Shown in pieces: positions 2,883-5,706 of a stretch of DNA of 64,000 nt; within the stretch, counting starts at the first letter, position 1, and each line of letters opens with the position of its first letter. Under the pieces are notes generated by a model. That model did not search any database. It was not told the origin of the DNA and saw nothing but the letters and a program-made list of their open reading frames with translations. Source of the stretch: Pocillopora damicornis (lineage: Eukaryota); contig NW_020845961.1 in NCBI RefSeq assembly GCF_003704095.1, forward strand, positions 124,001 through 188,000. The letters are read 5' to 3'. The translations under genes were made by a program, and so were the position numbers.

Positions 2883-5706
2883 ATGTCTAAAGAAACAAAC
2901 TCGGATTTTCTTGGCTCTGCTTTCACGAACATGAAGCTTGTGGGAACCGGTGGAAGCGGCGCAGTTTATTCCGCCATCGATGTGGAAACCGACCAACGGG
3001 TTGCTCTTAAAAGACTTATTCTTCGAGATCGAATGAATTGTAGAGCAGCTCTCAGAGAAGTGAAGGCTTTGAAGACTTTAGAACACGAGAATGTGGTGAA
3101 GTTATTAAAAGTGGTGGACTCAGAAGGCATGCCGTTCCTGGACGGCATGGACGAACATTTTAGAGGGGCGACCGAACTTTATCTTGTAGAAGACTTGATT
3201 GATTCTGACCTACATCAAATCTTACAAAGTAAGGGAAAACTACGGGAAGACTATGTGAAATTATTTTTATATCAACTGTTACGAGGACTGAAATACATCC
3301 ACTCCGCGAACGTAGTTCATCGTGACGTGAAACCAAGTAATTTGCTAGTTGACTCCGAAACGTTACTCCTGAGAATAGGCGACTTCGGACGATCACGAAT
3401 TCTCGATCCGGCTTACTCACACTACGGCCATCTAACTCACAGCGTCTCGACCTTGTGGTATAAATCGCCTGAACTGCTGTTGAACGCATCGACTTATGAC
3501 AGTTCGGTAGATATGTGGGCCGCGGGTTGCGTTTTTGCTGAGATGTTACTGGGCAAACCCCTGTTCGAAGGGAGGCACGAAATCGATCAAATGGAGCAAA
3601 TTTTGGACTCTGTTTGCCTTACGGAGGAAGAATGGATAGCCCTTAAACCACATTTGCCAGAAACAACGGCTATGAAAAGGACTCAGGGGCAAGGATCTGC
3701 TTTGGGAAGCAAGTTTCCTCACATTGACATCCAAGGTAAGGCCGGTTTCGTTGTCGGTTCGAACCATGTAAACATTGAAATTAATTTGCATACTTGCGCG
3801 ATGGTCAATTATACTTACGTAACTTAAATTTGTTTTTCTATGATTTTCGCCTTCTTATGCGCTGTCGCCGTAATTTTTTTCGTGTATTTATAATGGAGCA
3901 AACCCGTTTTTTCTGAGCCTTCCTCTTTCTATTCAAGAATTCTCTCTGATATTTCGCTTGTAATGCTCGCTTCAGAATTGTACTTTGACACCCTATGAAT
4001 ATTTCATGAATTCGAAAATAAAATACAAACAAAGAAAAAATTTTTTACAGGTATCTAGGGTGTATCTGCAGGGTGAAGTTGTCTTTTTATACTGTCTAAA
4101 TTTTTACGAGTTCAATTTAGTCTTTCGGAATGGATGTGGGTCAGAATCTACGAAATGAAAATGCTCGAATTGGGTGGTACTCTTGAAAAAATTTCGTGAG
4201 TCAGGAAATTGCTAAATTTAACCATGATAATAATTGTCAATGAACGGCCGTAATATCCCCTCTCGCCTGTTATGTTTTGGAGTAAAAATCGACTATCGGG
4301 TCCATTTACAAGAAACATTCGAGATTTTTCCCCCTTTTTTGTGACTTTCTAGTGGCGCAACAGATCGGCAAAAATCACACCATTAGACAAAATATTGTTT
4401 ACGTTTCAGTGCAGTCGCGGGTGGCAAAGCAATTTATCTTTTCCTGTTCTCTTGATGATTTCTGTTTTCATCTGTTCGAGTGAACTCTACATGTGAAGTA
4501 TTCAAAAGTAGTGGGATGGTGAATCGATGCCGTGTTAGTTTTCTGGCGATTTATTAGCGAAACCGAAAACCATGCAGTTATTAATATTCTTAAACCACAT
4601 ACTGAACTCGATGGAATGTTCTGTGTGATTGGCTGACTAACAATAAAGAACTGGAAATAACCTAAATGTTAAGCATTCTAGCAATACCTAACGATTTACA
4701 TGCCCAGAATCAGGCGCTGAAAGGGAACTAGTAAAGTTTCAGTATACAAACAAAAAACACTCGTGAAGAAGCGAAATTCTTCATATCCCTGGAAACCAAG
4801 CTGTAAATATTGACACCTAGAACCTTATATGCTAATTTTTTCTAAGCTTCCTCTAGTTCTTAGCAAACAAAATTCACACATGCATGAATTTATGTATTTC
4901 ATAAGTTTGCTTAGGGGGGAAATCACTGATTTGTCTCTGAGAGACTCTAACATCTCTTTGCCTTATATAACATTGTTGGCATAAATGTAATGGTGAGTAT
5001 GTAGTAACATCATAACAAAATTAACAAATAACCACCACATTTTCTTGAAGTAATGTCAGCACTCAACATTTGCCTCTTGTTATTATTTGCAGCTCTTGAT
5101 CTGCTGGTGAAAATGCTGAAGTTCAACCCAGATAAAAGAATGACTGCAGAAGAAGCCCTTGCACATCCTTACCTTCATCAGTACTCATTCCCTTCAGATG
5201 AACCTATCTGTTTCGAGCCATTGCACATTGAGGATGAAGTTGGAGACTTTGAAGAGGGCACATTGAAAAGCTGGATTTTAGAAGAGTGTTCTTCATTTGA
5301 AAGTAGTGGCTCTTTTGAAAGCTCTGTTCCAGATGTTGTTGTTAAAGAAGTTGTTTTGGAGAATCAAGATACTGGAAATGACATATTATCTTTAAAGGAC
5401 ATTATGCAGGAGCCAGAAGCCCCTTTGCTGGACCAGTGCAAAACCTGCATTGATGTGTCGGAGCGTTTGGGATTGGAAACTTGCAAAGAAGGACTTGAAA
5501 CTTTGGCTGCTGCTTACAAAATCCAAATGTCCTTCAATGGCACTATTGATCCTAAAGATCAGGCAAAACTCTTTGAGTTTCATCATGCCAACATGCCTTC
5601 ATCCATTTTAGATGGTATGTTTGGCAAGGGTGCTTTGAAGGAAAATGTGAACTTTACATGTAAGAAAAACGTTTTTAATGGACCGTTTGGATTGTGTTAT
5701 TTTTAA
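2883..5706 (+). CDS. MAPK4/MAPK6: Atypical MAP kinase, ERK3/ERK4 (MAPK6/MAPK4)-like, 2 coding exons, ~488 aa
   Basis: Exons 2883-3735 and 5093-5706 (CAAG|gtaag ... ttgcag|CT, phase 1 matches). Intact kinase motifs [44 protein letters not shown] resembles ERK3 RIMDPHYSHKGHL, and EPLHIEDE resembles the ERK3/4 FHIEDE/FRIEDE motif. Confidence 0.88.

Follow-up and report, generated by a model that had tools for sequence, protein, structure and literature searches.

A kinase gene in the coral Pocillopora damicornis raises the question of whether the ERK3/4-MK5 module of vertebrates was present before bilaterians arose and, if so, how it was switched on. The window analyzed here is a stretch of 64,000 nucleotides (contig NW_020845961.1, positions 124,001 to 188,000). 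An earlier note, made from its sequence alone, had described an ERK3/ERK4-type kinase whose activation segment reads THS and SPE. It took this motif for a state halfway between conventional MAPKs (TxY and APE) and vertebrate ERK3/4 (SEG and SPR), with a phospho-switch of Thr or of Thr and Ser together. Our analysis of the sequence points to an intact, expressed ERK3/4. A single phosphate on Thr185 is likely to turn it on, and it likely uses LHIEDE to dock with and activate MK5; we consider this reading probable as a whole.

Gene structure and family membership

The gene lies on the + strand in two exons (2883–3735 and 5093–5706) that encode 488 amino acids with no internal stop. THS (3435–3443), SPE (3465–3473), and the EPLHIEDE of exon 2 are all present as first read; the span originally assigned to the kinase (3379–5240) runs only from DFG through the docking motif, within a larger gene (2883–5706). 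The protein contains a Pfam Pkinase domain (E 7.8e-57) with the catalytic set of Lys43, Glu59, HRDVKPSN (HRDxKxxN), and DFG. RNA contigs from 4 of 4 runs, drawn from 4 studies (4 of the 18 listed runs), skip 1357 bases at the exon joint, and in 3 of the 4 runs the spliced contigs extend to 6323. With the reading frame intact and the RNA spliced, a pseudogene was ruled out. Low-depth RNA contigs also lie over the intron (3736–5092) and upstream of the gene (2500–2780) and may represent unspliced RNA or DNA carry-over. The predicted protein of Pocillopora meandrina (CAH3034427.1) matches it at all but 9 of 488 residues, the motifs included; its AlphaFold model (mean pLDDT 76) predicts the MAPK fold with confidence as far as about residue 350 and the tail beyond with low confidence. 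A fold search with this model ranked ERK2 structures first (TM 0.86 by target), and fold did not separate the subfamilies. The features of the gene are listed below, followed by its neighbors in the window; fractions refer to aligned sequences (rows).

2883–3735, +, coding exon 1: encodes most of the kinase domain (amino acids 1–284 and one further base); RNA contigs end at 3735
3009–3011, +, catalytic Lys43 (VALK): Lys in 29/29 hexacoral-type rows
3054–3059, +, alphaC Arg58-Glu59: Arg58 in 29/29, Glu59 in 19/29, Gln in 10/29; Arg58 belongs to the predicted phospho-Thr pocket
3318–3326, +, HRD catalytic loop, amino acids 146–148: invariant in the 29 hexacoral-type rows and in a 58-row ERK3 alignment
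3381–3473, +, activation segment from DFG (amino acid 167) to SPE (amino acid 197): Arg172 (DFG+3) invariant in both alignments
3435–3443, +, T185-H186-S187: aligned with ERK2 TEY and ERK3 SEG; Thr185 is the predicted single phospho-site, Ser187 varies in relatives
3453–3464, +, L191-W-Y-K194: Leu and Lys at two Arg positions of ERK1/2 TRWYR; Leu 27, Met 2; Lys 17, Arg 9, Gln 3 (n = 29)
3465–3473, +, SPE: other corals and anemones with APE
3736–5092, +, single GT..AG intron of 1357 bases, from sequence and spliced RNA
5093–5706, +, coding exon 2: amino acids 285–488 plus stop; end of kinase domain, L16, acidic tail
5197–5202, +, common-docking acidic pair D320-E321: D320 and I330 are 10 residues apart, as are ERK3 D324 and I334 in the accessible text of PMC5333157
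5221–5238, +, LHIEDE of L16, amino acids 328–333: compare ERK3 FHIEDE and ERK4 FRIEDE; Ile330 at the position of ERK3 Ile334
5680–5703, +, C-terminal GPFGLCYF: kept in stony corals, GPFGLCYL in Actinia
5707–6323, +, 3' untranslated region, at least to 6323, from spliced RNA contigs
11810–16549, −, CRAL/TRIO plus tyrosine phosphatase gene (PTPN9-like)
24088–25705, −, and 33025–34952, +, two paralogous genes in divergent orientation, both with one exon encoding a PAN domain and another lacking any Pfam match
37648–40979, +, phosphoacetylglucosamine mutase gene (PGM3-like)
from 55770, +, mitochondrial DNA polymerase gene (POLG-like)

In humans, MAPK6, PTPN9, and POLG are all on chromosome 15q, and a MAPK6-PTPN9-POLG neighborhood would then be an old linkage.

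Among sequences of solved structures, the best match to the coral protein is human MAPK6 (E 2.8e-79; ERK2 reaches only 3.1e-58), and protein searches found ERK3/4-like relatives in corals, anemones, and jellyfish alike. In a quick 87-row tree, the coral protein fell inside a 57-row ERK3-like group (SH-aLRT 99) whose sister is ERK1/2. For a further tree the activation segment was dropped from the alignment so that the motifs could not drive the grouping. The loop-free tree separates 24 ERK3-like rows, the coral protein included, from 13 conventional MAPK rows (100/99). It places the coral protein with stony corals (100/99) within anthozoans (100/99), and the anthozoan rows adjoin medusozoan rows (91/82), among them the Aurelia sequence deposited as ERK3. 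ERK1/2 is the sister group (96/95), the end branch of the coral protein is short (0.08), and forcing the anthozoan rows together with ERK1/2 was rejected by the AU test (p 9.7e-05). Rooting on two CDK rows placed the root inside the ERK3-like group, whose rows then failed to form one clade; we took this outcome as long-branch pull and, knowing it, rebuilt the tree without CDKs to give the loop-free result above. The comparison covers ERK1/2, ERK5, p38, and NLK but neither JNK nor a verified ERK7, and the labels of ERK5, NLK, and p38 rows were assigned from motifs.

Cow MAPK6 and Aurelia ERK3, used as queries, both have the coral locus as top genome match (6.0e-72 and 2.0e-70), followed by separate TEY genes of the ERK5 and ERK1/2 types and a TPY gene of the JNK type. 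Three genome searches, in which 137 of 167, 150 of 178, and 81 of 129 candidates were scored, found no second ERK3/4 copy, and no gene of the SEG/SPR type, in the 4393-contig assembly. A search with an SPR pattern gave 81 matches, mostly one repeat; 30 loci and 4 more chosen by reading frame were translated, the rest being judged from 17-mers. None of the 34 translated loci is a kinase, and the 6 W-Y-x-S-P-R/S matches listed all fall outside kinase frames. The dispersed repeat that makes up the bulk of the 81 matches carries TGGTACAGTTGGCCGCG (for example, in L090, L093, and L094).

These comparisons leave us nearly certain that the coral gene is an ERK3/4 (MAPK4/6) ortholog, the identity first proposed for it. 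The number of contigs, the partial scoring of candidates, and the failure to recover an ERK3-like clade under CDK rooting could be taken to mean that the gene is a fast-evolving paralog or a divergent ERK1/2 and that a canonical SEG/SPR gene lies elsewhere. The ranking of this locus first by both queries, the loop-free grouping, the short end branch, and the position of the listed W-Y-x-S-P-R/S matches all argue against such a paralog, as does the confinement of SEG/SPR to vertebrate rows, hagfish included; we assign it a negligible probability.

The coral protein shares with vertebrate ERK3 and ERK4, alongside which it falls in one clade, a kinase domain about 45–50% identical, the DPxYSHxGHL start of the loop, the absence of the TxY Tyr, the common-docking Asp, xHIEDE in L16, and a long C-terminal tail. 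It differs in having Thr for Ser at the phospho-site (THS for SEG), in keeping the Glu of SPE that is changed to Arg in vertebrates, in carrying Leu for Phe in the docking motif, and in being encoded by one gene rather than two. Its tail is shorter, apparently unrelated, and ends in GPFGLCYF: in the C34 region only the start of L16 aligns, and the tail has no visible alignment to two vertebrate rows (short isoforms) and no Pfam match. GPFGLCYF is kept although the preceding tail diverges and might serve as a binding motif particular to the lineage. Conserved C-terminal ends of their own are found in ERK3 of the medusozoan side, of bivalves, and of tunicates. Annotated invertebrate ERK3/4 proteins of the same family also carry T-x-x (Desmophyllum MAPK6, Orbicella MAPK6-like, Acropora and Actinia MAPK4-like, Aurelia aurita ERK3 ARJ54256.1, and Acanthaster and Mizuhopecten MAPK4-like), whereas positions 2 and 3 and the A/S-P-E ending vary by lineage. 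ERK1/2 share the Thr and its Arg pocket; the coral protein, in contrast, lacks the Tyr, has xHIEDE for FKFDME and a long tail, and reads THS and TLWYK where conventional MAPKs have TxY and TRWYR. The genome has its own TEY ERK1/2 gene.

Activation motif and predicted phospho-switch

Motifs were tallied in those cluster representatives that span the segment; fragments were excluded, as was P0098, a row with no match to the pattern. In 20 stony-coral-type rows, position 1 of the triplet is Thr in 19 and Ser in 1, position 2 is always His, position 3 is Ser in 10, Arg in 8, and Gly in 2, and the segment ends in SPE (14) or APE (6). The 30 hexacoral-type rows have Ser (11), Arg (8), Cys (7), Gly (2), or Lys (2) at position 3 and end in APE (16) or SPE (14). 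Across 72 non-vertebrate rows, part of which were placed by tree and the remainder assigned by likeness, there are 27 different triplets. Position 1 is Thr in 61, Ser in 10, and Ala in 1 (Thr or Ser in 71/72); position 3 is Tyr in none and Ser in only 12; and the endings are APE (41), SPE (27), PPE (3), and APQ (1), with no SPR.

Acropora reads THR/APE, Porites THG/SPE, Orbicella and Desmophyllum THS/SPE, Actinia THC/APE, Nematostella THS/APE, and Aurelia TEL/APE, giving a THx pattern in hexacorals and TEL or TAx on the medusozoan side. Bivalves have TDG/SPE, echinoderms TQN/SPE, Glandiceps SEN/SPE, Ciona SMT/SPE, and hagfish SEG/SPR; two basal ERK3 rows carry TET and TGG. SEG occurs only in vertebrate rows, and the coral protein has neither SEG nor SPR. 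The earlier note had envisaged tabulating the motif across cnidarians, sponges, and placozoans. Cnidarians are covered here, and no named sponge, placozoan, or ctenophore ERK3 appeared among the best 120 of 1214 profile-search matches, which were mostly fish MAPK6. Ser at position 1 is found in a few hexacoral-type rows and in the hemichordate Glandiceps, so the change from Thr to Ser occurred more than once, beyond the chordate stem.

Bilaterian invertebrates mostly end the segment in SPE, and the Ala/Ser state before P-E requires 3 changes on the tree. On the simplest reading, SPE would have been gained once in bilaterians and once in stony corals and reversed in Acropora. An ancestral SPE intermediate was rejected, as parsimony favors a separate Ala-to-Ser change in stony corals; among bilaterians SPE does represent a step on the way to SPR, but the coral SPE is probably a parallel change. 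The THS/SPE motif itself carries little information and is one of many invertebrate variants.

The phospho-Thr of ERK2 is held by arginines of alphaC, HRD, and DFG+3, and its phospho-Tyr by the TRWYR arginines. In the hexacoral-type rows the first set (Arg58, Arg147, and Arg172) is invariant (29/29), and the TRWYR arginine positions hold Leu or Met in 29/29 and, at the second, Lys (17), Arg (9), or Gln (3). The MAPK6 alignment pairs coral Thr185 with ERK3 Ser189, which occupies the ERK2 Thr185 position in the accessible text of PMC11011113. Because the first Thr/Ser and the Arg pocket alone are kept, one phospho-site is likely; because position 3 varies among relatives, a second at Ser187 is unlikely. 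Judged by these patterns, a single phospho-site at Thr185 is highly probable.

In the mechanism we propose, phospho-Thr185 would sit in the Arg58/Arg147/Arg172 pocket as does the phospho-Thr of ERK2, and phospho-Ser189 of ERK3 is thought to behave alike. The Tyr of TxY would have been lost early in animals together with the TRWYR Arg (Leu191 in the coral), and this joint loss would have left position 187 free to vary without serving as a switch. Autophosphorylation or, by analogy, PAK would be candidates for phosphorylating Thr185, and MEK would be unlikely.

The earlier picture of THS/SPE as a preserved evolutionary intermediate with a dual Thr/Ser switch has in its favor that THS is the commonest single triplet (11 of the 72 non-vertebrate rows), shared by Pocillopora, Orbicella, Desmophyllum, and Nematostella, and that Ser can carry a phosphate. 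The motif is nevertheless unconserved among close relatives, as Acropora, Porites, and Actinia illustrate, an outcome that the earlier note had itself counted as a refutation. Position 3 is Ser in only half of the stony-coral-type rows and in 11 of 30 hexacoral-type rows, with Arg, Cys, Gly, or Lys in its place, and the Arg that binds phospho-Tyr in ERK2 is Leu or Met throughout. APE in anemones, medusozoans, and Acropora, together with the three Ala/Ser changes, speaks against an intermediate, and cnidarian MK5 has made the same swap (SPQ versus APQ), which indicates that the change comes easily. We regard this picture as very unlikely and retain the single Thr185 switch.

Docking motif and a probable MK5 partner

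The L16 motif reads FHIEDE in ERK3 and FRIEDE in ERK4 according to the accessible text of PMC5333157 and PMC12062777. Coral LHIEDE is identical to FHIEDE at five of six positions and keeps the key Ile (Ile330). The pattern hydrophobic-x-I/V/L-E-x-E is found in L16 of nearly all the non-vertebrate full-length ERK3 rows listed, and its first residue is Leu, not Phe, in 10/10 hexacoral rows listed. ERK1/2 and ERK5 have FKFDME and FDFEFD at the same place; since these are also hydrophobic-acidic, LHIEDE is weaker as proof of MK5 docking, and part of its conservation may reflect ordinary L16 packing. The accessible portions of vertebrate studies describe how the loop phosphate exposes Ile334 of FHIEDE, which binds the last ~50 residues of MK5, and report that I334K abolishes ERK3-MK5 binding (PMC4705221, PMC11011113, PMC5333157).

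The earlier note had looked to a MAPKAPK5 (MK5) ortholog as a check on the module, and such a gene was found. The pattern TPYYVAP has 0 matches in the genome because coral MK5 reads VSP. A shorter MK5 pattern gave 54 genome matches, of which 50 were read and 1 is a kinase exon (G000:C1684) reading DFGFAKIDRGDLVTPQFTPYYVSPQV. On that contig, 11 exon matches to Pocillopora verrucosa MK5 run in order from L087:6269 to L088:4205 at 93–100% identity; they reach the last residue, C-terminal extension included, and residues ~39–63 fall on an assembly gap. The gene thus encodes both a T-P activation site and the extension at the C-terminus that sets MK5 apart from MK2/3. MK2/3 structures cover MK5 profile positions only up to 373 of 480, and across 70 rows the extension shows strong conservation at Leu, Cys, Pro, Trp, and Phe positions. 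In a tree without vertebrate MK5, the MK5 side split from MK2 at 100/100, and one row guessed as MK2 was placed on the MK5 side. MK5-like named relatives come from corals, anemones, Hydra, Clytia, two sponges, a ctenophore, hemichordates, and amphioxus. The coral MK5, like all cnidarian MK5 tree rows, has SPQ at the APE position, and amphioxus and a bivalve have APQ.

Judged from these genes, both halves of the vertebrate ERK3-MK5 interface are encoded in the coral genome. Loop phosphorylation would expose Ile330 of L16, as in vertebrates, Ile330 would bind the C-terminal extension of MK5, and the outcome would be phosphorylation of the threonine in MK5 T-P-Q-F. We consider a partnership between coral ERK3/4 and MK5 reasonably likely, with binding predicted from the two interfaces. 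No paper on a cnidarian ERK3-MK5 pair turned up in the literature searched, which had most subscription journals outside its coverage.

Loop wiring, activity, and significance

The hexacoral loop has a further peculiarity. Its 13-residue core (T-H..T-L-W-Y; window 3435–3473) is identical at 9/13 positions to a CDK of the same genome, at 7/13 to its ERK1/2, and at 5/13 to vertebrate ERK3, and the Acropora and Actinia cores reach 10/13 with CDK. The T-loops of CDK and NLK (THE) share T-H and T-L-W-Y with the coral, whereas the rest of the coral domain is MAPK4/6-like. A CDK chimera was rejected, as the flanks are ERK3-like, and the likeness is most simply explained as convergence. Two substitutions suffice to produce it, and we treat it as a lead only. 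His186 is fixed in hexacorals (29/29) and variable elsewhere, against a background of 70/241 invariant columns.

Two further readings accept the gene as an ERK3/4 and doubt its wiring or its activity. It might have a wiring of its own, with a converged CDK-type T-loop phosphorylated by another kinase (CAK-like or the protein itself), MK5 docking weak or lost, and LHIEDE retained for folding. The CDK-like core and fixed His186 would fit this, as would a tail unlike that of vertebrates and the lack of a fixed upstream basic residue (the vertebrate Lys position is Asn in 13, Lys in 5, Ser in 4, and other residues in 7 of 29 rows). Yet T-H and L-W-Y lie only two substitutions from TEY and TRWY, invariant columns are common enough that a fixed His is not rare, NLK also reached THE, and Ile330 and the MK5 extension are both kept; we think such wiring improbable.

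On the other reading the protein would be redundant, weak as a kinase, or confined to a scaffold role, in line with a preprint whose accessible text suggests that non-vertebrate ERK3/4 may be redundant or non-functional (bioRxiv 10.1101/2024.10.01.616093); kinase-independent roles are also reported for human ERK3 in the accessible part of PMC11011113. Also in its favor, Gln replaces the alphaC Glu in 10/29 hexacoral-type rows, and Lys or Gln frequently stands in for the final Arg of WYR. The coral protein itself, in contrast, keeps Lys43, Glu59, HRDxKxxN, and DFG, and its gene is transcribed and spliced, with relatives across corals, anemones, and jellyfish, so that we give a weak or inert kinase very little weight and favor an active ERK3/4. 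The rows with alphaC Gln (P0020–P0029, P0026) include Nematostella, and the substitution may lower kinase activity in anemones.

Kinase catalogues list ERK3/4 and MK5 families outside vertebrates, and coral genes already carry MAPK4/6-like and MK5-like names in public annotation. The pre-bilaterian age that the earlier note proposed for ERK3/4 is already stated, with a Thr-only motif, in the accessible text of the 2024 preprint (bioRxiv 10.1101/2024.10.01.616093). That text traces ERK3/4 to choanoflagellates and describes a T-x-x motif in early animals, with the first site kept, later residues highly variable, the second site lost, and Thr changed to Ser later; the coral protein is the same in keeping Thr and losing the second site. 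Its main text has 0 mentions of MK5, coral, Acropora, or Trichoplax, and its figures or supplement may show a cnidarian motif. Elsewhere, in texts accessible in part, the origin of ERK3/4 was placed before echinoderms and chordates (PMC3202601), in keeping with the earlier note's account of a family described mostly from deuterostomes, and MK5 was said to seem "absent in invertebrates" (PMC3419095). Three sequence-based observations did not appear in the literature searched: the apparent retention of the docking motif across invertebrates, an MK5 with a C-terminal extension in this genome, and the putative CDK-like loop of hexacorals.

What remains plausible after these checks is an ERK3-MK5 module in cnidarians. 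MK5-like genes in sponges and a ctenophore and the docking motif in the deepest ERK3 rows lead us to propose that the module may be as old as animals. The fuller proposal, which joins a working module of that age to a hexacoral CDK-type T-H-x-x-S-T-L-W-Y loop switched by a kinase that is neither PAK nor MEK, is tentative and rather unlikely. If the pairing holds in cnidarians, it would correct the statement that MK5 is absent in invertebrates (PMC3419095) and the view of pre-vertebrate ERK3/4 as redundant (bioRxiv 10.1101/2024.10.01.616093), insofar as the accessible parts of those texts convey them. If the module is as old as animals, its atypical function would predate vertebrate SEG/SPR by hundreds of millions of years. 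Even in mice, little is understood of what acts upstream of ERK3/4 or what the kinases do, and a true cnidarian pairing would make Nematostella or Hydra, in which both genes are single-copy, simple models.
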